From NCBI GenBank assembly GCA_964542785.1, contig CAZIUK010000001.1:133115-197114 (forward strand): DNA of 64,000 bases. Direction: 5' to 3'. Position 1 is the stretch's first letter. Each line of letters starts with the position of its first letter. Below the pieces are notes generated by a model, which was given only the letters and a program-made list of their open reading frames with translations, had not been told where the DNA came from and searched no databases. The translations under genes and the position numbers were made by a program. Below, one piece after another: positions 3,668 to 62,455 of the stretch. Source of the DNA: an uncultured Planctomycetales bacterium. GTDB lineage: Bacteria > Omnitrophota > Gorgyraeia > Gygaellales > Profunditerraquicolaceae.

Positions 3668-4645
3668 ATGCGTAAGGTTGGCATAATTGGAGTAGGCGAG
3701 TATCTACCGCAAAAGGTTTTAACTAATGCAGACCTTGAAAAGATAGTTGATACTACCGACGAATGGATTACCACAAGAACAGGGATAAAGGAGCGCAGGA
3801 TCGCTTCTTCTTCTGAGGCCACTTCAGATTTAGCGATAAAAGCTGCCAAGGAGGCATTAAGGGATGCCAAATTAACCCCTCAGGATATTGATTTAGTAAT
3901 AGTCGCTACCATTACCCCGGACCTTATCTTTCCTTCCACAGCCTCTATAGTGCAAAACGCTCTCTCCATAAAGAATGCCGCAGCTTTTGATATCTCTGCT
4001 GCATGCGCGGGGTTTGTCTATGCATTATCCGTAGCGCGCCAGTTTATTACCAATGGTGCCTATAAAAATGCCCTTGTTATCGGAGCTGAAAAGCTCTCAG
4101 CAGTAACAGACTGGCAGGACCGTAACACTTGCGTTTTACTCGGCGATGGCGCAGGCGCATGTGTTGTCTCCGGGGTAGATAGCGGAGGCATAGCCTCTAT
4201 TTATCTGGATTGCGATGGTTCTAATTTAGAGTTACTGTATATGCCTGCCGGAGGTTCGCGTTTACCTGCGACATATGAAACCGTAGATAAGCGTATGCAT
4301 TTTCTTAAGATGCGCGGTAATGAATTATTTAAGATAGCGGTTAAAACAATGACTATGGCCGCAGAAAAGGTATTAGAACAGGCAGGGCTTACCTTTAAGG
4401 ATATTGACCTTATAGTCCCGCATCAGGCTAATTCCAGGATAATTATGGCAGTAGCCAAAAAACTCGGGATTCCCGAAGAAAAGATTTTTCTTAATATAGA
4501 AAAATACGGGAATATGTCTAGCGCTTCTATGGTTACAGCTTTGGTTGAAGCAGTAAAGGAAGGTAGGGTTAAAAGAGGAGATACGGTTCTTCTTGATTGT
4601 TTTGGCGCAGGGTTAGTCTGGGGTGCCTGCGTTATAAATTGGTAA
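3668..4645 (+). CDS. fabH: 3-oxoacyl-ACP synthase III FabH
   Basis: N-terminal IGVGEYLP and AACAGF active-site Cys, C-terminal GFGAGLVWGA. Confidence 0.9.
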   Translation: MRKVGIIGVGEYLPQKVLTNADLEKIVDTTDEWITTRTGIKERRIASSSEATSDLAIKAAKEALRDAKLTPQDIDLVIVATITPDLIFPSTASIVQNALSIKNAAAFDISAACAGFVYALSVARQFITNGAYKNALVIGAEKLSAVTDWQDRNTCVLLGDGAGACVVSGVDSGGIASIYLDCDGSNLELLYMPAGGSRLPATYETVDKRMHFLKMRGNELFKIAVKTMTMAAEKVLEQAGLTFKDIDLIVPHQANSRIIMAVAKKLGIPEEKIFLNIEKYGNMSSASMVTALVEAVKEGRVKRGDTVLLDCFGAGLVWGACVINW

Positions 4646-4654
4646 TAAATAAAG

Positions 4655-5578
4655 ATGGATAAGACAGCATTTCTCTTTGCCGGGCAAGGTTCTCAATATG
4701 TAGGCATGGGAAGAGAGCTTTACGATAGTTTTCCTGAGGCAAAATCTATCTTTGATAGGGCCCAAAAATTATTAGATTTTGATTTAAAGCAAATTTGCTT
4801 TGAAGGCCCGGAAGATAAATTAAAAGCGACTAATATATCCCAGCCGGCTATTGTAACTGTTAGCATAGCTGCTTTTGAATCTTTTAAGGCAAAGAGTAGT
4901 ATTAAGCCTAACTATATGGCGGGTTTGAGTTTAGGTGAGTATAGCGCTTTGATTGCTGCCGAGAGTATTAGCTTTGAAGATGGGATCCGATTGATTAAGG
5001 CGCGCGGAGGGCTAATGGAAGAGGCCTCTAAAAAATTCCCCGGGAAAATGGCGGCAATTTTGGATTTGCCTTTAGAAAAGATAAAGGATATCTCTTCAGA
5101 GTCTAAGGCGCAGATAGCAAACCTTAATTGCCCGGGACAGGTTGTTTTAACCGGAAGTCCCATACAGATAGACAAGGCTATTGAGCTTTCTCTTGAGGCA
5201 GGCGCTAAGAGGGCTATTCCATTAGAGGTAAGCGGAGCATTTCATTCTTCGTTTATGTTTGAGGCCGCAGCCGGGTTAAAGAAGGTATTAGAGAATACTA
5301 ACATTAAAAATGCACTTATCCCTGTGGTAAGCAATTTTACGGCAGATATACAAGTAGACCCTTTTCAAATTAAAGATAATTTGGCTTCCCAGATTCATTC
5401 TTCAGTCAGGTGGGAAGATTCAATGAGGTATATATTATCTAAAGGCATAAGTGGCTTTATTGAGTTTGGCCCGGGTAAGGTTCTTAAGGGCTTGATGAGG
5501 AAGATAGAACCTTCTATAAAGGTAATAAATATAGAAAAAGCATCGGATATTTTAAGTTTATCTAGTCAAGCATTCTAA
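4655..5578 (+). CDS. fabD: malonyl-CoA:ACP transacylase FabD
   Basis: FLFAGQGSQYVGMG and GLSLGEYSAL active-site Ser motif. Confidence 0.9.
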   Translation: MDKTAFLFAGQGSQYVGMGRELYDSFPEAKSIFDRAQKLLDFDLKQICFEGPEDKLKATNISQPAIVTVSIAAFESFKAKSSIKPNYMAGLSLGEYSALIAAESISFEDGIRLIKARGGLMEEASKKFPGKMAAILDLPLEKIKDISSESKAQIANLNCPGQVVLTGSPIQIDKAIELSLEAGAKRAIPLEVSGAFHSSFMFEAAAGLKKVLENTNIKNALIPVVSNFTADIQVDPFQIKDNLASQIHSSVRWEDSMRYILSKGISGFIEFGPGKVLKGLMRKIEPSIKVINIEKASDILSLSSQAF

Positions 5579-9233: not shown

Positions 9234-9273
9234 TATGAAGGATTGTCCCGTTTAACCCAGGAAGTTTGAGTTT

Positions 9274-9327
9274 GGGGACAGCGACTTTTAAGCGACTTTT
9301 TAATAGGGTATAAAAGTCGCTGTCCCC
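9274..9327 (+). repeat. long perfect palindrome (family 2): GGGGACAGCGACTTTTA ... TAAAAGTCGCTGTCCCC, 17-bp arms, 20-nt loop containing a third AGCGACTTTTT copy
   Basis: Perfect inverted repeat immediately downstream of leuC; related copy at 29317-29354. Confidence 0.8.
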
Positions 9328-9349
9328 ATTAAACATTAAAAGGTGTATT

Positions 9350-19583: not shown

Positions 19584-20762
19584 ATGAAAAAAGAAGAAAT
19601 ATTCGATAGCTATCAAGAAAATATAATGCCTACATACTCAAAATCCCCTTTAATTTTTGTAAAGGGTAAAGGTTCAAGGTTGTGGGATATACATAATAAT
19701 CTTTATTTAGATTTTTTCCCGGGTTGGGGTGTTGGGAACTTAGGGCATTGTCATTCTAAGGTTATGTCAGCGATAAGAGACCAAGTGTCAAGGTTGATAT
19801 TTGTACCTAATAATTATTACCATGTTCCCCAGGCAAGGTTGGCAAGAGAGTTAGTTTTATCTTCTTTTCCTGCAAAGGTATTTTTTTGTAACTCCGGGGC
19901 AGAGGCAAATGAGGGGGCGATAAAATTTGCGCGTAAATTTGGCTCCGGAAGGTATGAGATAATTACTTTTGAGGGCTCTTTTCACGGTAGGACAATGGCT
20001 ACTTTAAGCGCTACGGGACAGAAAAAATACCAGCAGGGTTTCGAGCCTCTGCTGCAAGGGTTTAAGGCGGTTAAGTTTAATGATCTTCAGGCGGTTAAAG
20101 ACGCAATAACTGATAAGACTATAGGAATCATGCTTGAGCTTATTCAAGGAGAAGGGGGCATAAACGTAGCAGATAAGGATTTTGTTTTGGGTTTAAGAAG
20201 GCTCTGTGATGAGAAGGGCTTACTTTTGATTGTAGATGAAGTGCAGACCGGGATCGGCAGGACAGGAAAATTGTTCTCCTATCAACATTACGGGATAACC
20301 CCGGATATTATGACTTTGGCAAAAGCTCTTGGAGCAGGGGTGCCTATTGGTTGTATGTTAGTTAAAAAAGACATTGCAGATACCTTAACCGCAGGCACTC
20401 ATGCATCTACTTTTGGTGGCGGGCCGGTAATATGTAAGGCTGCACTTGCTGTCTTAAGGGCGATAAAAAAAGAAAAATTACTTATTAACGCCCAAAAGAT
20501 GGGTGAATATATGTTTACTCTGCTTAATGCGCTTAAAGGTAAGCATCAGGCTATAAAAGATATAAGAGGCATAGGCTTAATGGCAGGAGTTGAGTTAAGG
20601 GTTGAAGGCAAGGCAATAGTACAGGAGTGTATGAATAGGGGGTTATTGATTAACTGCACTCAAGAGAAGGTTTTAAGATTGATGCCTGCTTTAAATGTAA
20701 AGAAGAAGGAGATTGCTAAAGCCATCTTTACTTTAGACAGCGTTCTGGGGGACGCTTCCTAA
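19584..20762 (+). CDS. argD: acetylornithine aminotransferase
   Basis: Class III PLP aminotransferase (DEVQTGIGRTGK); last codons and stop lie inside a REP element. Confidence 0.85.
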   Translation: MKKEEIFDSYQENIMPTYSKSPLIFVKGKGSRLWDIHNNLYLDFFPGWGVGNLGHCHSKVMSAIRDQVSRLIFVPNNYYHVPQARLARELVLSSFPAKVFFCNSGAEANEGAIKFARKFGSGRYEIITFEGSFHGRTMATLSATGQKKYQQGFEPLLQGFKAVKFNDLQAVKDAITDKTIGIMLELIQGEGGINVADKDFVLGLRRLCDEKGLLLIVDEVQTGIGRTGKLFSYQHYGITPDIMTLAKALGAGVPIGCMLVKKDIADTLTAGTHASTFGGGPVICKAALAVLRAIKKEKLLINAQKMGEYMFTLLNALKGKHQAIKDIRGIGLMAGVELRVEGKAIVQECMNRGLLINCTQEKVLRLMPALNVKKKEIAKAIFTLDSVLGDAS

Positions 20763-20805
20763 GGTGCCAGGCTCCAGGAAAGTTTACTTAAAAATTATGA
20801 AAAAG
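20745..20805 (+). repeat. REP-like element copy A (CTGGGGGACGCTTCCTAAGGTGCCAGGCTCCA + conserved tail ...TTACTTAAAAATTATGAAAAA)
   Basis: About 85% identical to 61114-61178 and shares GGGGACGCT..AAGGTGCCAGGCTCCA with 46648-46680 and the inverted copy at 47387-47404. Confidence 0.8.
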
Positions 20806-29309: not shown

Positions 29310-29316
29310 TATAAAT

Positions 29317-29354
29317 GGGGACAGCCACTTTTTTATAAAAAAGTGGCTGTCCCC
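29317..29354 (+). repeat. 38-bp perfect palindrome (family 2): GGGGACAGCCACTTTTTTATAAAAAAGTGGCTGTCCCC
   Basis: Downstream of dapL stop; differs from 9274 copy by G to C in the left arm matched by a complementary change in the right arm. Confidence 0.8.
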
Positions 29355-29368
29355 ATCTAAGATTTAAT

Positions 29369-31453: not shown

Positions 31454-31699
31454 ATGGCAGAAAAACTCGTGAAGTTAGGAATCAAAAGGGAAAAAGGTTA
31501 CCTCTATTTTATTGATAAGCAAGGCGATGTTTCATGTACTAAAATGGCACGCGGCGCTAAAAAAGGCGGTGGAAAGAAGAAGGTAGCCAAGTGTGGCATC
31601 AAAAGAAAAGACGGTTACCTTTATTTCCTTGATAAAAAAGGCGATGTTTCTTGTGCAAAGATGAAAAGAGGCGGAAAGAAGAAAAAGAAGAAAAGATAA
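31454..31699 (+). CDS. small (81 aa) lysine-rich protein made of two tandem 35-aa repeats (G[IV]KRxxGYLYFxDKxGDVSCxKMxRG)
   Basis: Internal tandem duplication visible at protein and DNA level (about 80% nt identity between 31493-31545 and 31604-31656); Lys/Gly-rich tails. Confidence 0.5.
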   Translation: MAEKLVKLGIKREKGYLYFIDKQGDVSCTKMARGAKKGGGKKKVAKCGIKRKDGYLYFLDKKGDVSCAKMKRGGKKKKKKR

Positions 31700-44754: not shown

Positions 44755-45147
44755 ATGGATATGAAAAGAAAAGGTGGTTTTACTTTGGTTGAAATCGTTG
44801 TAGTAATTATAATTGTAGGCATATTAGCTGCTTTGGGTTTTACGCAATATACTAAGGTAGTGGAAAAAGGACGTACTGCTGAAGCTAAGTCTATTTTAGG
44901 TGCACTTAGGACAGCGCAACAGGCAAAACATTTGGAGACCGGCGCTTATGCAACTGTACCTAATTTGCCTGTGGAGGCGCCTTCTAGCTGCGCTAATACT
45001 CATTATTTTAGCTATGCATGTACTACTACTGGGACTTGTACTGCTACAAGATGTACTAGTGGAGGTAAGGCACCCCAGGGTCCCTCTAGGTATACTCTTA
45101 ATCTTTCTATTGATGGGGAGTGGGGCGGAACAGCGGGTTATTATTAA
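44755..45147 (+). CDS. type IV pilin (prepilin-type N-terminal cleavage/methylation domain)
   Basis: KGGFTLVEIVVVIIIVGILAA class III signal; Cys-rich C-terminal D-region. Confidence 0.75.
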   Translation: MDMKRKGGFTLVEIVVVIIIVGILAALGFTQYTKVVEKGRTAEAKSILGALRTAQQAKHLETGAYATVPNLPVEAPSSCANTHYFSYACTTTGTCTATRCTSGGKAPQGPSRYTLNLSIDGEWGGTAGYY

Positions 45148-45251
45148 TTTAATTTTAACAAGACGTTTTATTGAGCAGGGTATTATTCTGTTATTTTAGC
45201 AGTTAGTAATGCTTTGCTCAATAAGCGTTTAAAAAAATATTAAAGGCTGAT

Positions 45252-45671
45252 ATGTCAGAAAACAATAGACACTCCTTTACTCTCATAGAAGTTTTAGTTG
45301 TTATAGTCATTATTGGTATTCTTTCTGCAATAGCTATCCCGAATTTTAACAAGACAAAGTATAATGTTTTAAGTAAAGAGGCAGTCTCTAATATCAGACT
45401 TATTGCTGCGGCTGAGAAAATATATAAGATGGAGAGCGATGAAGATGTGTATGATTCTTGCGATAATACTGCGGAATGTAATGATACCCTTAAGTTGGAT
45501 TTAAATGACTCTAATTGGGTTTATAGCGTTAAAACTACCTCTACCCCTTTAAGCGTAGCTACGATAAAAGCGGAATTAAAAGGGAATTTAAATTGCACAT
45601 ATACTTTAACTAGTAGTGATTTTAATGCCGATCCTGAAAAATCACGCAACTGCCCTGACGGGATGATTTAA
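45252..45671 (+). CDS. prepilin-type minor pilin
   Basis: RHSFTLIEVLVVIVIIGILSAIAIPNF. Confidence 0.6.
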   Translation: MSENNRHSFTLIEVLVVIVIIGILSAIAIPNFNKTKYNVLSKEAVSNIRLIAAAEKIYKMESDEDVYDSCDNTAECNDTLKLDLNDSNWVYSVKTTSTPLSVATIKAELKGNLNCTYTLTSSDFNADPEKSRNCPDGMI

Positions 45672-45685
45672 GGTAAAAGTAAGAA

Positions 45686-46045
45686 GTGAATAAAAAAGCC
45701 TTAACCCTATTAGAAATCCTCGTCTCCTTAATCATTATTTCTTTAGTGATTACTGGCTTGGCAAGCACCTTTGTAATTGGAAAGCGTTATATTTATAAAA
45801 GCAGGTTAAAGATTTCAGGCGCAGAATTAGGAAAGTATTTTTTAGACTCTCTTCAGAGGCATGTTAATTATTCTACTTGGTATGATACGGACAACTCCTT
45901 AGGCCCTAAAGGTCCCAAAAAATATTTTGAAAAAATAACTATAGATGACAGGGATTACAAGGGTACTTATGAAATCGATACTGTTGACTCGTCGGATAAT
46001 CTTACCAAGGTAACGGTTTCTATAACTTTGCCTGCTATTGAATAA
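45686..46045 (+). CDS. prepilin-type minor pilin (PilV/GspI-like)
   Basis: KKALTLLEILVSLIIISLVI; Glu5 present. Confidence 0.55.
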   Translation: MNKKALTLLEILVSLIIISLVITGLASTFVIGKRYIYKSRLKISGAELGKYFLDSLQRHVNYSTWYDTDNSLGPKGPKKYFEKITIDDRDYKGTYEIDTVDSSDNLTKVTVSITLPAIE

Positions 46046-46638
46046 TGCCTTACCAGAATAAATCTATAACCTTAATGGAGCTTTTGATAGCACTTGTCTT
46101 AATGGGGCTTGTTATCCTCGGTATAAATAGTATTACTATATTCAGCCGTTATCAACTTATCTCTCTTGACCGCAGGATTAAAGTACAGAACGATCTTTCT
46201 TTTTGCCTGGATCATATTGCTAAAAGAGGTTTAAGTACCATAGGTAATGAAAAGGTTTTTGGCGAGAAAACAGCTGTTGTGATTGAGACAGACACTTCTT
46301 TGGCGCTTTATATTGACGCTCCTAGATCTTCTCTTGGCATTAGGGATGTTAACGACTATTGGATAAAATATACTTTTGATAAGTCTTCTAACCGGTTGTT
46401 GTATTGCAGTAATTGCGGGGCTTCTTCTGCCTGTCTTAATTGTAGAGAGGAAGGGAAAGAAGAGGTTTTATCTGGCATAATAACTTCTTTTAAGCCCGGT
46501 AAAAATTTTAGCGAAGGGAATTATGTATATGTTAAAATTTCAGGCCGTTGGGACCCTTCTAAGGAAAAGGATTCTGTAGATAATCCCGAAGTAATTATGC
46601 GCTCTACCATTTACTTGCCATCCGTCTCCACCAACTAA
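46045..46638 (+). CDS. prepilin-type minor pilin (PilW/GspJ-like)
   Basis: NKSITLMELLIALVLMGLVILG; ATG overlaps preceding stop. Confidence 0.55.
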   Translation: MPYQNKSITLMELLIALVLMGLVILGINSITIFSRYQLISLDRRIKVQNDLSFCLDHIAKRGLSTIGNEKVFGEKTAVVIETDTSLALYIDAPRSSLGIRDVNDYWIKYTFDKSSNRLLYCSNCGASSACLNCREEGKEEVLSGIITSFKPGKNFSEGNYVYVKISGRWDPSKEKDSVDNPEVIMRSTIYLPSVSTN

Positions 46639-46647
46639 ACCCTAAAT

Positions 46648-46680
46648 CCTGGGGGACGCTCTCCAAGGTGCCAGGCTCCA
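46648..46680 (+). repeat. REP-like element copy B (left flank of RAYT)
   Basis: CCTGGGGGACGCTCTCCAAGGTGCCAGGCTCCA. Confidence 0.8.
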
Positions 46681-46762: not shown

Positions 46763-47353
46763 ATGCCTAGAGCAAATAGGTTGATTTTGGACAGAGGGTA
46801 TTACCATGTCTTTACAAGAGGTAATGACCGAAAGCAAATATTTAGAAAAGATGCGGATTATCAGGTTTTTATTTCTATCGTAAAACGATACCTAAAAGAA
46901 GTTTTATTGGCAATAACAAATTATTGTTTAATGCCGAATCATTTACATTTGCTTATCTTTACTGAACGAGGAGATGATCTCTCTATTTTTATGAAGAATA
47001 TCCTACAGGTATATGCTAATTACCACAGAAAGGAATATAATTCCGTAGGGTTTCTTTATCAGAATAGGTTTAAAAGTTTATTAATAAATAATGATAGTTA
47101 TTTGTTAGAATGTTCCAGGTATATAGAGCGCAATCCATTACGGGGAAAATTAGTAAGCAATATATTTGATTGGCCTTGGAATAGTTTTTCCTACTATGCA
47201 AAAGGAGATACTAATGGTATAATTACCAAAGAAAATCCGGCCTTTCAATCTTTAGGTAGCTTACTTAAAGACAGAAGAACCTCTTATATTAATTATGTTT
47301 TACAGGAAAGGCCCTATGATGAGATTCTTGATAAGGTATTTGAATTAAAATAA
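46763..47353 (+). CDS. REP-associated tyrosine transposase (RAYT; IS200/IS605 Y1 HUH transposase family)
   Basis: YHVFTRGN, HUH motif MPNHLHLL, catalytic-Tyr motif RYIERNPL; ATG 46763 preceded by GGAGGTGG RBS (track start 46754 is GTG). Confidence 0.75.
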   Translation: MPRANRLILDRGYYHVFTRGNDRKQIFRKDADYQVFISIVKRYLKEVLLAITNYCLMPNHLHLLIFTERGDDLSIFMKNILQVYANYHRKEYNSVGFLYQNRFKSLLINNDSYLLECSRYIERNPLRGKLVSNIFDWPWNSFSYYAKGDTNGIITKENPAFQSLGSLLKDRRTSYINYVLQERPYDEILDKVFELK

Positions 47354-47355
47354 GT

Positions 47356-47404
47356 CCTTGGGGACGTTCCCCAAGTGCCTGACACCTGGAGAGCGTCCCC
47401 CAGG
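47356..47404 (+). repeat. REP-like elements copy C (right flank of RAYT; hairpin plus inverted copy of left REP)
   Basis: CCTTGGGGACGTTCCCCAAG, then TGCCTGACACC, then TGGAGAGCGTCCCCCAGG. Confidence 0.8.
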
Positions 47405-47415
47405 GGACAGGTTTG

Positions 47416-47491
47416 GGGGCTGTAGCTCAGCTGGGAGAGCGCCTCGTTCGCAACGAGGAGGCCAGCGGTTCGATCCCGCTCAGCTCCACCA
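47416..47491 (+). tRNA. tRNA-Ala (anticodon CGC)
   Basis: 76-nt cloverleaf: acceptor GGGGCTG/CAGCTCC with G3:U70 Ala identity pair, D-stem GCTC/GAGC, anticodon loop TTCGCAA, T-arm AGCGG-TTCGATC-CCGCT, encoded CCA. Confidence 0.85.
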
Positions 47492-58788: not shown

Positions 58789-59103
58789 ATGTATGCAGTA
58801 ATTGAAATCAGCGCAACGCAATTTAAGGTAAAAGAAGGCGATACCATTGACGTAAATAAGCTAGAAATCAATGATAAGAAAGATATCTTTATTGACAAGG
58901 TGCTTCTTCTTTCAAAAGATAAGAAGATAGAGGTCGGGCAACCCTATTTAAAGGGGGTAAAGGTAAGGGCTGAAGTTTTAGGTCAGGTTAAGGGAGACAA
59001 GGTAGTTTCTTTTAAATACCGCCGCCGTAAATCATCGCAATGGAAGAAGGGTTTTCGCGCCCAGCTTACCCGTATTAAGATTAAAGAGATTATAGCTAAC
59101 TAA
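58789..59103 (+). CDS. rplU: 50S ribosomal protein L21
   Basis: MYAVIEISATQFKVKEGDTI. Confidence 0.9.
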   Translation: MYAVIEISATQFKVKEGDTIDVNKLEINDKKDIFIDKVLLLSKDKKIEVGQPYLKGVKVRAEVLGQVKGDKVVSFKYRRRKSSQWKKGFRAQLTRIKIKEIIAN

Positions 59104-59117
59104 TAGCCGGCTAAAGC

Positions 59118-60077
59118 ATGTTTGTAGATGAAGCAAAGATCTTTGTAAAAGCAGGCAGCGGAGGCAAGGGTTGCGCAAGTTTTCGGAGGGATAGATTTAT
59201 CCGTTATAGAAAGCCCGACGGCGGGGATGGCGGCCGTGGCTCAGATATAATACTCTTAGCAGATAAAAAGATCTATACCCTTCTAGATTTTCATTACAAC
59301 CGCCACTTTAAAGGTGCACATGGCGCAAATGCCTCTAGCAATGATAAAAAAGGCAAGGACGCAGAGCCGGTTATCATACGTGTTCCGGTAGGTACAGTTA
59401 TCACAGATATTAAGACCAATTGCCTTTTGCGCGATTTAGAAAAAGAGGGAGAGCAGGTTGTAGTTGCCTTAGGCGGCAAGGGTGGGTTAGGCAGTAAGCG
59501 TGCGCCAAACAATGAAGCGCAGATTGGAGAACCCGGGGAAGAAAGAGAGCTCTTCCTTAATCTAAAACTAATTGCGCAGGCAGGATTAGTAGGGTTCCCC
59601 AATGCTGGAAAATCTACCCTGATATCCAGTATCTCAAACGCTAAGCCGCAGGTAGCAGCTTATCCATTTACTACCAAGTTTCCTGTTTTAGGGGTGGTAA
59701 GGGGTGAGTCTGCTGATTTTACAGTAGCAGATATCCCCGGCCTTATTAAGGGCTCTTGTGAGGGAAAGGGGTTAGGGGATAAGTTTTTAAGGCATATAGA
59801 GCGGACTAAGGTTTTAATACACGTAGTTGATATCTCAGGGTTTGAGGGTAGAGACCCTGCCTTAGATTACAAGGCGATTAACCAGGAGTTAAAAAAATAT
59901 AGTACTTTTTTAATAAAGAAACCGCAGGTTATTGCTTTAAATAAAATTGACCTTCCGCAGGCAAAGGAGAATTTAAAGCGGTTTAGGAAAACAATTAAAA
60001 AAGAAGTCTTTCCTATTTCAGCGTTGAACAAAATAGGGCTAGAGGATTTAATAGATGCTGTTGCGAAAAAAATATAA
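59118..60077 (+). CDS. obg: GTPase Obg (short form, no C-terminal OCT/TGS domain)
   Basis: Gly-rich Obg fold (FVDEAKIFVKAGSGGKG, GGDGGRG), G-domain GFPNAGKST. Confidence 0.85.
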   Translation: MFVDEAKIFVKAGSGGKGCASFRRDRFIRYRKPDGGDGGRGSDIILLADKKIYTLLDFHYNRHFKGAHGANASSNDKKGKDAEPVIIRVPVGTVITDIKTNCLLRDLEKEGEQVVVALGGKGGLGSKRAPNNEAQIGEPGEERELFLNLKLIAQAGLVGFPNAGKSTLISSISNAKPQVAAYPFTTKFPVLGVVRGESADFTVADIPGLIKGSCEGKGLGDKFLRHIERTKVLIHVVDISGFEGRDPALDYKAINQELKKYSTFLIKKPQVIALNKIDLPQAKENLKRFRKTIKKEVFPISALNKIGLEDLIDAVAKKI

Positions 60078-61179
60078 AAGGATAGTAATAAAGATAGGCT
60101 CAAGCCTTTTTTATGCTAAGGACGCTAAGCCCGATACTGCTGTAATCAGTAGTTTTACTAAAGAGATAGCAAATTTAATCCTTATAGGAAAAGAGGTGGT
60201 GCTTGTCTCCTCAGGCGCAGTTGCCTTAGGGATGTCCATATTAAAGATAGCTAAGAGGCCTAAGGATTTAAGCCTTTTGCAGGCAGCTGCTTCAATTGGC
60301 CAGCATGAGTTAATGCATTTGTATAGTACTTTTTTTAAGAAGCTATCCTTATCCTGCGGGCAGATACTTTTAACTTGGGATGATTTCTCAAACCGCGCGC
60401 GTTATTTAAACGCCAAAAATACTATCAACACACTTTTAAAACTAAAAAGTGTGCCGGTAATTAACGAAAATGATACCGTCTCTACTGAGGAGATAAAGTT
60501 TGGGGACAACGACCGGCTTTCAGCTTTGGTCGCGGCCATGGTAGGGGCTGATATTTTGGTTATTCTTTCAGATATAGACGGGTTATTGGATAAAAATAAA
60601 AAAGTTATCAAGGTTGTAGATAAAATTACCCCAGAGATTAAGGCGTTGGCATCTTCTACTAAAAGGACAACTTCTGTTGGGGGGATGGTTACAAAGTTAG
60701 ATGCTGTTTTAGTTGCTAACCGTTCAGGTATCCCTTGCGTAATAGCCAACGGCAGAAAAAAAGATATTCTTCAATCTGTTTTAGGCGATCCTCTAAATAG
60801 TGGCACGCTTTTTTTAGCTGAAGGAGATAAGCTTGACGCTAAGGAGCGCTGGATGGCGTTTGGCACTAAGGTTAAAGGGAATATAACGGTTGATGACGGA
60901 GCAAAGAAGGCATTGATTAATAATAAGAGCTTGCTTGCAGTAGGAGTTGTCTCTTGTGCAGGTAATTTTTCTTGTGGAGATATAGTGGGGATTTGCGATG
61001 CTAAGGGTTGTGAGTTTGCCCGGGGCAAGGCCTTTATTTCAATGACAGAACTTGAGAAGGTAAAGGGAGCTCGCTTTGCCAAAGAAGTCATCCACCGCAA
61101 CAACCTTGTTTTACTTGGGGACGCTCCCCAAGGTGCCAGGCTCCAAACAAACTTACTTAAAAATTATGAAAAAAAATAG
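60055..61179 (+). CDS. proB: glutamate 5-kinase (with PUA domain); C-terminal about 20 aa encoded by a REP element
   Basis: IVIKIGSSLF amino-acid kinase N-terminus, PUA domain; ORF reads through REP copy D to TAG at 61177. Confidence 0.85.
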   Translation: MLLRKKYKRIVIKIGSSLFYAKDAKPDTAVISSFTKEIANLILIGKEVVLVSSGAVALGMSILKIAKRPKDLSLLQAAASIGQHELMHLYSTFFKKLSLSCGQILLTWDDFSNRARYLNAKNTINTLLKLKSVPVINENDTVSTEEIKFGDNDRLSALVAAMVGADILVILSDIDGLLDKNKKVIKVVDKITPEIKALASSTKRTTSVGGMVTKLDAVLVANRSGIPCVIANGRKKDILQSVLGDPLNSGTLFLAEGDKLDAKERWMAFGTKVKGNITVDDGAKKALINNKSLLAVGVVSCAGNFSCGDIVGICDAKGCEFARGKAFISMTELEKVKGARFAKEVIHRNNLVLLGDAPQGARLQTNLLKNYEKK

Positions 61180-61223
61180 GAATTTTAGAAGTAAAGTGGT
61201 ACCTCTGGGAGCGTCCCCAAGAG
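61114..61223 (+). repeat. composite REP-like element copy D: hairpin CTTGGGGACGCTCCCCAAG + GTGCCAGGCTCCA + conserved tail with ATG + inverted hairpin CTCTGGGAGCGTCCCCAAGAG
   Basis: 61114-61178 is about 85% identical to 20745-20805; 61203-61223 is an inverted copy of the REP core. Confidence 0.8.
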
Positions 61224-62455
61224 ATGTTGCAAAGGGGGCGGCTGAGTCAGCAAGGGTGTTGGCTAACCTATCTGCGCTAGAGAAGAATAGAATCCTGCGT
61301 GAAATGGCGCGCGCCTTGCTTAAAAACAAAGATGTAATTATAAGAGCCAATAAGAAGGATTTAGCAGCAGCAAAGAGGATAGGATTATCAAACGCCTTAA
61401 TTGACCGCCTTACTTTAAATACAAAGCGTCTGTATGATATGGCTGATGGGCTTATAAATGTCGTTAAACTCCCAGATCCTATTGGTGCTGAGATTAAGGC
61501 TTGGGATACTCCTTTAGGGTTAAATATACATAAGGTTCGCGTCCCAATAGGGGTTATTGCTATTATTTACGAATCTCGGCCGAATGTAACTGCTGATTGC
61601 ATCGGGCTTTGTTTTAAGTCCGGCAATAGCGTAATCCTAAAAGGCGGCAGTGAAGCGTTAAATTCAAATATTGCGATATACAAAGTTATTGAAGGGGTTA
61701 TTAAGAAGAATAAACTCCCTTTAGGCATAGTTAATCTCATTGCCACAAAGGATAGAAAGGTTATTGATATTTTGCTTAAGCAAAATGATTATATTGATTT
61801 AGTTATGCCGCGCGGAGGCGAAGCGTTAATTAAAAAAGTAGTTGCAACATCAAAGATACCGGTAATCAAGCATTACAAAGGCATTTGTCACATCTATGTT
61901 GATGATTACGCTGACTTAAATATGGCTGAAAGAGTTTGTTTCAACGCCAAAGTTCAGCGCCCCGGAGTCTGTAACGCAATGGAGACGATGCTCGTGCATA
62001 TAGATGTAGCAGGAAGGTTTCTTCCTTCAATGTTAAATAAGTTTCAAAGCGCCGGGGTTAAGATTTACGGCTGCCCGCTTACTCAGAAGATATACAAGGG
62101 TAAAATAGAAAAAGCCACAGAAGCAGACTTTGGTACAGAATTTTTAGATTTAGTTTTATCAGTTAAGGTAGTATTTGACATTAATGAGGCGATAAGCCAT
62201 ATAAATACCTTTGGCTCGCATCACTCAGATGCGGTTATTACCGAGGATAAGAGAAGCGCGCAGGAGTTTCTAAAAAAAGTTGACTCTGCCTGTGTTTATC
62301 TTAATGCCTCTACGCGTTTTACCGACGGAGGAGAGTTCGGCATGGGAGCTGAAATAGGTATCTCTACTGATAAGCTTCACGCCCGCGGGCCCATGGCGCT
62401 TGAGGAACTTACAACTTATAAATATGTTATATACGGTAACGGCCAAACCCGGTAG
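61166..62455 (+). CDS. proA: gamma-glutamyl phosphate reductase
   Basis: Aldehyde dehydrogenase family with catalytic Cys (GVCNAMET); start set at ATG 61166 inside REP tail (in-frame GTG 61196 also possible). Confidence 0.8.
   Translation: MKKNRNFRSKVVPLGASPRDVAKGAAESARVLANLSALEKNRILREMARALLKNKDVIIRANKKDLAAAKRIGLSNALIDRLTLNTKRLYDMADGLINVVKLPDPIGAEIKAWDTPLGLNIHKVRVPIGVIAIIYESRPNVTADCIGLCFKSGNSVILKGGSEALNSNIAIYKVIEGVIKKNKLPLGIVNLIATKDRKVIDILLKQNDYIDLVMPRGGEALIKKVVATSKIPVIKHYKGICHIYVDDYADLNMAERVCFNAKVQRPGVCNAMETMLVHIDVAGRFLPSMLNKFQSAGVKIYGCPLTQKIYKGKIEKATEADFGTEFLDLVLSVKVVFDINEAISHINTFGSHHSDAVITEDKRSAQEFLKKVDSACVYLNASTRFTDGGEFGMGAEIGISTDKLHARGPMALEELTTYKYVIYGNGQTR

Follow-up and report, generated by a model that had tools for sequence, protein, structure and literature searches.

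In Pseudomonas and Enterobacteria, two inverted repetitive extragenic palindromic (REP) sequences and the spacer between them form a unit, the REPIN, that is associated with and mobilized by a REP-associated tyrosine transposase (RAYT) (PMC3337134; PMC3116915). REPs and REP dimers of the GTAG/CGTC type also occur inside known genes, where they encode 20–30 residues; slightly more than 10% lie at the 3′ ends of open reading frames (ORFs) and more at N-termini (Di Nocera et al., 2013; PMC3733652). Such intragenic REPs were judged by comparison with shorter homologues, and many of the N-terminal cases possibly reflect mis-called starts (PMC3733652). Rickettsia palindromic elements (RPEs) and other miniature inverted-repeat transposable elements likewise form in-frame fusions in protein genes (PMC10969869). 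Here we describe an element at the junction of proB and proA in a window of 64,000 nucleotides (the whole stretch of DNA that was analyzed) of contig CAZIUK010000001.1, from an uncultured bacterium of the phylum Omnitrophota. As far as can be judged from its sequence, the element matches the published description of a REPIN, with two inverted REPs, a spacer and an associated RAYT-type gene. We consider it likely that this REPIN-type element has merged with both ORFs, giving ProB a C-terminal tail and ProA its N-terminus.

Results

A Composite REP Element Spans the proB–proA Junction

The genes obg, proB, proA and nadD follow one another in the window (identities by Pfam and NCBIfam). proB (glutamate 5-kinase; TIGR01027, 362.6 bits; Pfam AA_kinase and PUA) occupies positions 60055–61179 of the + strand and encodes 374 aa. 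proA (glutamate-5-semialdehyde dehydrogenase; NF001221, 583 bits) lies on the same strand at 61166–62455 and encodes 429 aa from ATG 61166 or 419 aa from GTG 61196. The composite, REPIN-like element at 61114–61221 (+, 108 nt) begins with a forward REP unit, CTTGGGGACGCTCCCCAAGGTGCCAGGCTCCA (61114–61145, +), which the proB frame translates as L-GDAPQGARLQ. An A/T-rich spacer follows (61146–61196, +) and holds both the candidate proA ATG (61166–61168) and the proB stop TAG (61177–61179). The inverted REP arm (61197–61221, −), read on the + strand in the proA frame together with its flank to 61225, gives VPLGASPRD. GTG 61196–61198 straddles the last two parts, its first base being the last base of the spacer and the rest lying inside the inverted arm.

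An inverted-repeat search paired 61114–61138 with 61197–61221, arms of 25 nt that are 88% complementary and 58 nt apart. Each arm holds a small palindrome, GGGGA-CGC-TCCCC; in the REP at 61114, CTTGGGGA-CGC-TCCCCAAG folds as DNA into a hairpin with 8 bp in the stem and 3 nt in the loop (−8.1 kcal/mol). The forward REP belongs to a 32-nt family with copies at 20745 and 46649 that are 91–94% identical; these two copies are degenerate and fold weakly as DNA. The whole element can be aligned end to end with composites of ∼117 nt from other contigs, and its spacer is homologous to the family spacer (...TAAAAATTATCAAAAAATAGGAAAA...). The proB TAG falls within the spacer's conserved AAATAGG, and other copies of the family read ATC at the position of the window's spacer ATG.

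A consensus scan of 61100–61230 gave no terminator-like site, and no T-runs follow the REP hairpins. No promoter-like site accounting for the junction region was found. Rfam 15 gave no match at gathering score; plant miRNA precursor models matched below threshold (best 30 bits, with 60–140 needed) because the sequence is a generic long hairpin. A target-site duplication was considered, since TTACTT at 61111–61116 and 61153–61158 flanks a 42-nt segment that is missing from the closest relative. It was rejected: the first copy consists of the native codons L353–L354 and the second belongs to the conserved family spacer (TTAAGTAAAAATTAT in contig L124).

ProB Reads through the Forward REP

Among the 120 best ProB orthologues, 109 are 352–357 aa long and end in ...HR[ND]N[IL]V[IL]L, an end equivalent to residue 354 in the window (...HRNNLVLL). 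No stop codon is present there. The native part of proB extends to 61116, where codon 354 (CTT) directly abuts GGGGACGC, and the frame stays open for 20 further codons (61117–61176). These encode the tail GDAPQGARLQTNLLKNYEKK; there is no in-frame proB stop before 61177. In the closest relative (GCA_049275655.1, contig L001; 91% identical), proB stops right after residue 354, its end reading ...GTT ATT CTC TAA ATT ATG, and the forward REP is missing. A GDAPQG tail was found among orthologues only in P0002 (from L093; ...LLGDAPQGGTPQSFLGKIHRKIGK) and in a contig-end fragment, P0057, both derived from the same REP family. AlphaFold gives residues 356–374 of the window protein a predicted local distance difference test (pLDDT) score below 50.

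A preliminary description of this stretch had anticipated much of this. Its read-through of proB, with CCCC where the argD copy of the repeat (below) has the TAA, holds, as does the TAG at 61177, and the tail it proposed is real, at 20 residues rather than about 17. It had also asked whether ProB normally ends near IHRNNLVLL, which is the case in the orthologues; they do not share the tail. As a refinement, both the proB stop and the candidate proA ATG come from the spacer rather than from one of the REP arms.

The Inverted REP Is Joined to the First Conserved Helix of ProA

The first 10–20 residues of ProA are encoded by the element. Most of the best orthologues (108 of 120) are 415–421 aa long and start with M-x-L-K-x-E-I-x-x ahead of the helix IAKNA..A.R. 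Both the window and L001 lack this native segment, and the inverted REP is joined directly to the conserved helix: the fusion point reads ...GGA GCG TCC CCA AGA GAT / GTT GCA AAG, and codons 61202–61225 encode PLGASPRD immediately before VAKGAAESAR. Position 9 of the NF001221 profile (418 long) aligns with ProA residue 20. The canonical in-frame starts are TTG 61076 (deep in proB), ATG 61166 and GTG 61196, and the next is GTG 61256; in the window and in L001, no in-frame start lies after the inverted REP and before the conserved helix. In 49 orthologues, residues 22, 25 and 28 show no or almost no variation, and translation must therefore begin upstream of them; a start at GTG 61256 would delete the conserved helix. 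On this sequence evidence the inverted REP is necessarily translated as PLGASPRD. The preliminary description, which had put ATG 61166 and GTG 61196 in frame inside the element and PLGASPRD ahead of the helix, was right on these points, and the conserved residues leave no place for a start downstream of 61230. ProA residues 1–15 have a pLDDT below 50 and the first helix begins at residue 18. The predictions place the extra peptides of both proteins outside the conserved folds, with the family profiles ending or beginning at the junctions.

Which of the two codons is used is less clear, and we favor ATG 61166 on thin support. It is conserved in L001, and spacer ATGs are also present in L050 and L147. 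The ProA extension differs between the window and L001 at 10 of 60 positions, distributed 0/3/7 over the three codon positions (p = 0.02), and the two versions differ in length by whole codons; within codons 2–10, which separate the ATG from the GTG, the differences are 0/2/4. The two codons are placed differently in the predicted RNA hairpin, the AUG within the apical loop and the GUG at the base of the 3′-arm stem. Initiation at GTG 61196, yielding a protein of 419 aa (MVPLGASPRD...) to which the inverted REP but not the spacer contributes, ATG 61166 being incidental, is nevertheless a serious possibility, though we would not bet on it. The NCBI record of the genome (P0241) gives this length, which fits the family, and a GTG occurs at or beside the same codon in L147 and L001. 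That codon is, however, shifted in L001 and absent from L050. A Shine–Dalgarno (SD) motif proved uninformative as a discriminator because about half of the nearby genes have none; the lack of one at the ATG says little.

Junction States in Relatives Suggest an Old Element

The loci of the nearest relatives were reached through exact-protein look-ups; a ProB scan of genome contigs did not return them. An inverted REP occupies the same place in L001, L050, L093 and L147, and the states of the junction differ. L050 has a proB stop, an intact intergenic element and the native proA ATG; an ORF through its spacer and inverted REP, MMQKSVNFEYRAVPRGASPRS, ends 2 nt before that ATG and is homologous to the ProA extension of the window. 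In L093, proB is fused to the forward REP and the native proA start is kept. L147 has a proB stop followed by the element, and its proA runs from a spacer ATG through the inverted REP, with the fusion at a different point (...GASP / ILNIAKNAA). L001, without a forward REP, has proA fused as in the window. L096 carries two tandem forward REPs between the genes (5069–5155), direct copies of CCTGGGGGACGCTCCCCAAAGGGACACTCCCCAA instead of an inverted pair, so the REP family also forms head-to-tail arrays. L050, L096 and L147 have a proB stop ahead of the forward REP; the window has none there.

A neighbor-joining tree of ProB plus ProA (∼12 taxa) places L147 outside a group made up of (window, L001) and (L050, L093, L096, L098). 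The element is found at this junction in lineages down to ∼70% ProA identity. To its right, L050 and L093 have the common sequence GGT[CG]TTA[GA]ATATG, which argues for one orthologous insertion and not repeated hits. The simplest reading of these sequences is that the proB–proA junction is an old REP hot spot at which the element has, through small deletions, fused repeatedly to the neighboring ORFs, at least twice to proA and at least two to three times to proB. The forward REP may have been lost from L001 or regained in the window; the comparison accommodates either direction.

Other families of palindromes lie at the same junction in further Omnitrophota: L098 (1086–1165; GGGACACCC/GGGTGTCCC), L009 (5063–5160; GGGACGGTTCTCAA...TTGAGAACCGTCCC) and L007 (5060–5150; related to those of L009). 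Because these families occupy it too, the junction is a general hot spot. ProA starts called inside palindromes of the L098/L009/L007 type, such as P0255 (MSPDGDTRPIGRLGVPK-MKMELKEE) and P0264 (MIIRGQSPWRKH-MDLKQQ), are probably over-extended. Many orthologues have a plain proB–proA junction of 20–50 nt.

The Element Is Predicted to Fold as One RNA Hairpin

As RNA, 61100–61240 has a predicted folding energy of −53.8 kcal/mol (z −5.5), the two REPs pairing into a single hairpin of ∼110 nt. Its 15-nt apical loop, AUGAAAAAAAAUAGG, presents both the proA AUG and the proB UAG. The junctions of L050, L093 and L147 also fold strongly (z −3.2 to −6.7); the junction of L001, from which the left arm is missing, has no such fold (z −0.45). 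Only 8–10 nt separate the 3′ arm from the native proA ATG in L050 and L093. To arrive at the proB stop, ribosomes have to open the 5′ arm, and the predicted hairpin therefore suggests that proA initiation is probably coupled to translation of proB.

The strength of these folds raises the question of whether the element has been kept for a useful hairpin, either as a translational coupler or throttle that sets the ratio of ProB to ProA or as an mRNA-stability element, with the fusions as selected means by which proA stays translatable beside a very stable stem. In its favor, the element is found at the same junction down to ∼70% ProA identity; the native ribosome-binding region of proA in L050 and L093 would fall inside the stem; proA has been fused at two different points (window/L001 and L147); the spacer ORF of L050 stops just short of the native ATG; and other palindrome families sit at the junction in L098, L007 and L009. 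L001, however, has lost the left arm and the hairpin and still carries the fused proA, so the structure is dispensable there. Many orthologues manage with the plain junction, and most copies of the element elsewhere are intergenic and in unrelated contexts. We regard selection for the hairpin as unlikely.

Its most specific form, to which we give little credence, is a retained RNA device that shows AUG and UAG in the apical loop and would allow proA to be translated only when proB ribosomes open the 5′ arm. The joining of a short, element-borne ORF to proA, independently in window/L001 and in L147, and of proB to the forward REP (window, L093, P0057) would then be selected solutions. Were this so, essential metabolic genes would repeatedly have co-opted mobile-element sequence for their start and stop signals.

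The hairpin could also act on ProB itself. In E. coli, REPs near stop codons may stall ribosomes and trigger trans-translation. By analogy, stalling or mRNA cleavage at the REP hairpin, with the product released or else tagged by transfer-messenger RNA (tmRNA), would leave ProB ending near residue 354 and the tail rarely or never made; the hairpin does begin exactly at codon 354. We consider this very improbable. The frame has no stop before 61177, translating ribosomes usually unwind such hairpins, and the fusion is stable in P0002/L093, in P0057 and in six assemblies of the species; moreover, a cell that routinely tagged ProB by tmRNA would lose an essential enzyme of biosynthesis. An assembly or sequencing artefact at the repeat can be dismissed: several contigs of the species do end near the junction (L101, L104), but the exact 374-aa ProB, followed by proA, recurs on six contigs from six samples and independent assemblers, so the arrangement is not an assembly error, and related junction states exist in other species.

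The REP Family Is Accompanied by a Y1 Transposase Gene

The window contains six copies of the REP core GGGGACGCTCYCC, where chance predicts 0.9; no shuffled version out of 100 had as many. The sites, 20748(+), 46652(+), 47360(+), 47388(−), 61117(+) and 61206(−), fall into four loci: the argD–argF junction, the 5′ and the 3′ side of a gene at 46763–47353, and the proB–proA junction. This gene (+ strand) encodes a Y1, IS200-like transposase of the RAYT type, matched by Pfam Y1_Tnp (53.3 bits, cut-off 23) and, below its cut-off, by the NCBIfam model REP_Tyr_transpos. Its only match in the Protein Data Bank is E. coli TnpA-REP (4ER8; E = 9e-4), with which its HUH (NHLHLL) and tyrosine (RYIERNP; YIxxNP) motifs align. 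REPs bracket the gene. A copy of the 32-nt family with a core match lies on its 5′ side (46649–46680, +), and a doublet without overall orientation lies on its 3′ side (47357–47404; forward copy ∼47357–47376, inverted copy ∼47385–47404), which forms DNA hairpins of −14.7 and −16.6 kcal/mol on the two strands. The doublet ends ∼11 nt before a tRNA-Ala(CGC) gene at 47416–47491, and the transposase unit as a whole sits between that gene and a type IV pilin-like gene cluster (44755–46638) with N-terminal methylation motifs.

Contigs L117 and L138, fetched by the REP pattern alone, carry homologues of the transposase (78% and 50% identity) that are also flanked by inverted REPs. The pattern CTKGGGGACGCTCCCCAAGG returned 50 copies on 42 contigs from JGI metagenomes, with +/− doublets on eight contigs; most of the 50 are intergenic, in unrelated contexts. 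A unit of ∼117 nt, composed of a forward REP, an A/T-rich spacer (...TTTTTAAGTAAAAATTATCAAAAAATAGGAAAA...) and an inverted REP, is conserved between genomes. In L110, L124 and L128 the right arm has GTAG at its inner foot, a position at which the copies of the window have GTAA (61192–61195) or GGAG. Indirect signs that the family may be mobile are the forward REP that is present in the window and missing from L001, and the unrelated contexts of its copies. As part of the explanation given here, we think it likely, from these sequence data, that the repeats are REPs served by the RAYT-type transposase encoded 14 kb upstream of the proB–proA element.

All of the ArgD and ProB tails seen read GDAPQ, which hinted at insertion specific for site and frame. 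This idea was rejected: in the metagenome set of 50 copies, the REP is entered in all three frames (∼6, 3 and 2) by ORFs longer than 100 codons, which are predicted and not validated as genes. The GDAPQ frame is a preference at most.

A Half-Element Ends argD

The second junction of this kind lies between argD and argF, where a half-REPIN (20745–20804, +) comprises a forward REP and the left half of the spacer and extends to the argF ATG (20797). It is 87% identical to 61114–61173 over 60 nt, including an exact 21-mer, TTACTTAAAAATTATGAAAAA. That 21-mer was considered as a separate, mobile "start-codon cassette", but it is more simply accounted for as the left half of the same spacer. The argD stop, TAA (20760–20762), lies inside the REP, and ArgD ends in ...SVLGDAS. 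Because GCT TCC TAA replaces the GCT CCC CAA of the proB copy at the same place, the stop is a REP-internal codon. Most ArgD orthologues end in ...ILDEALR or ...VLRGI at 389–391 aa; the ArgD proteins P0126, P0128 and P0167 have longer REP tails (...GDAPQ[GR]D...). In the relative, what remains at the argD–argF junction is a decayed core, with an SD and an ATG after it. The spacer in the window stops exactly where its ATGAAAAA coincides with the native ATGAAAAA of argF (MKKDLVS in the relative). In L090, one gene caller places the start of ArgF within the REP, at GTG 20764, for a length of 317 aa (MPGSRKVYLKIMKKDLVS...), whereas the relative's ArgF has 306 aa and begins MKKDLVS. Judging from this comparison, the true argF start is probably ATG 20797 and the 317-aa call probably wrong.

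These results refine the REP part of the preliminary description. Its coordinates and identities for the composite were correct, and the REP-flanked transposase gene bears out the REP identity further. The similarity it gave to the argD–argF copy, about 85% over 61114–61178, comes to the 87% stated above over the shorter span. REP sequence has indeed entered coding sequence, three times and not twice: at the C-termini of ArgD and ProB and at the N-terminus of ProA. The REP origin of its "insertion" stands; the spacer and the inverted REP, which relatives also have, are old rather than a recent arrival.

Other Repeats and Differences in the Window

A second, unrelated palindrome, ATGGGGACAGCCACTTTTTTATAAAAAAGTGGCTGTCCCCAT, forms a perfect inverted pair at 29315–29356 and a near-copy pair at 9272–9329, four arms in all, against a chance expectation of none. 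Its form suggests either a terminator acting in both directions or a further small family of repeats. At 31472–31680, a direct repeat of 117 nt stands in two tandem copies (75% identical over 92 nt), just upstream of an apparently duplicated segment of ABC-ATPase type (31802 versus 33587); the repeat is probably a repeated protein module. L001 has a gene of 136 aa (4622–5032; Pfam 23S_rRNA_IVP) between rplU and obg, whereas in the window rplU ends at 59103 and obg starts at 59118. This is a gene-sized indel between close relatives.

Discussion

We propose, with some confidence, that a REPIN-type element at the proB–proA junction has merged with both ORFs. The element would be a non-autonomous unit in which two inverted REPs enclose the conserved A/T-rich spacer, and it would have resided between the genes since before this sub-clade of Omnitrophota diverged. 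On its left, the proB stop ahead of the forward REP would have been lost, so that translation reads through to the spacer TAG and leaves a tail of 20 residues. On its right, a deletion may have removed the native proA start with the first ∼8 codons, leaving the first conserved helix directly in frame with the inverted REP. Initiation of proA would then depend on a start that the spacer provides, preferably ATG 61166 and otherwise GTG 61196. Ribosomes finishing proB would open the 5′ arm, and proA initiation would be coupled to proB translation. As modeled, both appendages are most likely tolerated, disordered by-products and not functional domains.

Several observations weigh against parts of this explanation. 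The transposase scores 70.3 bits on NCBIfam REP_Tyr_transpos, under the equivalog cut-off of 80, and the REP count covers the 64-kb window, not the whole genome. The order of events is parsimony on a distance tree of ∼12 taxa, and independent insertions of the REP family at the hot spot may account for some lineages. ProA start calls disagree, the Logan and JGI records giving 429 aa (ATG) and P0241 the shorter form, and the codon-position signal in the ProA extension depends on just those 10 substitutions. Selection, instead of neutrality, could explain why the element has persisted and why fusions have recurred, on each side in at least two lineages.

The locus is a worked example of how a REP or REPIN reshapes gene ends, with the steps readable in relatives: an intergenic element, a spacer ORF abutting the start, loss of the start, and fusion. 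One element gives the stop of one essential gene and the start of the next. The finding extends systems of the REPIN–RAYT type to the Omnitrophota, a phylum known almost only from metagenome assemblies. It also exposes an annotation hazard, seen in ProA (419 versus 429 aa) and in the over-extended ArgF (317 versus 306 aa). Current understanding of REPs is unchanged by it; the case would carry more weight if the hairpin regulates proB and proA expression.

The closest parallel is the REPIN–RAYT system. Single REPs and inverted doublets with a spacer that form a long hairpin, copies that are dispersed and mostly intergenic in the sequence covered (the window and the metagenome contigs), and a gene for an IS200-like Y1 transposase flanked by inverted REPs are common to both. 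The present system differs in its host, an Omnitrophota bacterium known only from metagenome assemblies, in its distinct REP core (GGGGACGCTCCCC), in a spacer of ∼50–60 nt that is itself conserved between genomes, and in the GTAG tag, which is only partly present in this family. The alternating REP mosaics between operon genes of E. coli, the bacterial interspersed mosaic elements (BIMEs), are similar in arrangement. BIMEs are defined, however, by the Y and Z types of E. coli REP and by linker motifs, which bind integration host factor and gyrase, and the label is applicable here only as an analogy.

With respect to coding sequence, the genes of the window are in the same situation as those that contain GTAG/CGTC REPs, the segment being absent from orthologues. 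Here, in contrast, the native proA start is gone and translation of the REP is obligatory, and one element feeds two adjacent genes. RPEs, too, are palindromic mobile DNA tolerated as extra peptide outside the conserved fold. They are ∼150 bp long and insert internally, and to our knowledge no dedicated transposase has been identified for them; the element described here lies at gene termini, has a candidate transposase and supplies both a stop and a start codon. The proB–proA element is a clear case of a known phenomenon, since REPs in gene ends are already documented, and what is new is the phylum and the REP sequence. Its less common features are the feeding of two genes by one element, the replacement of a native start by an element-borne one and the intermediates kept in relatives.

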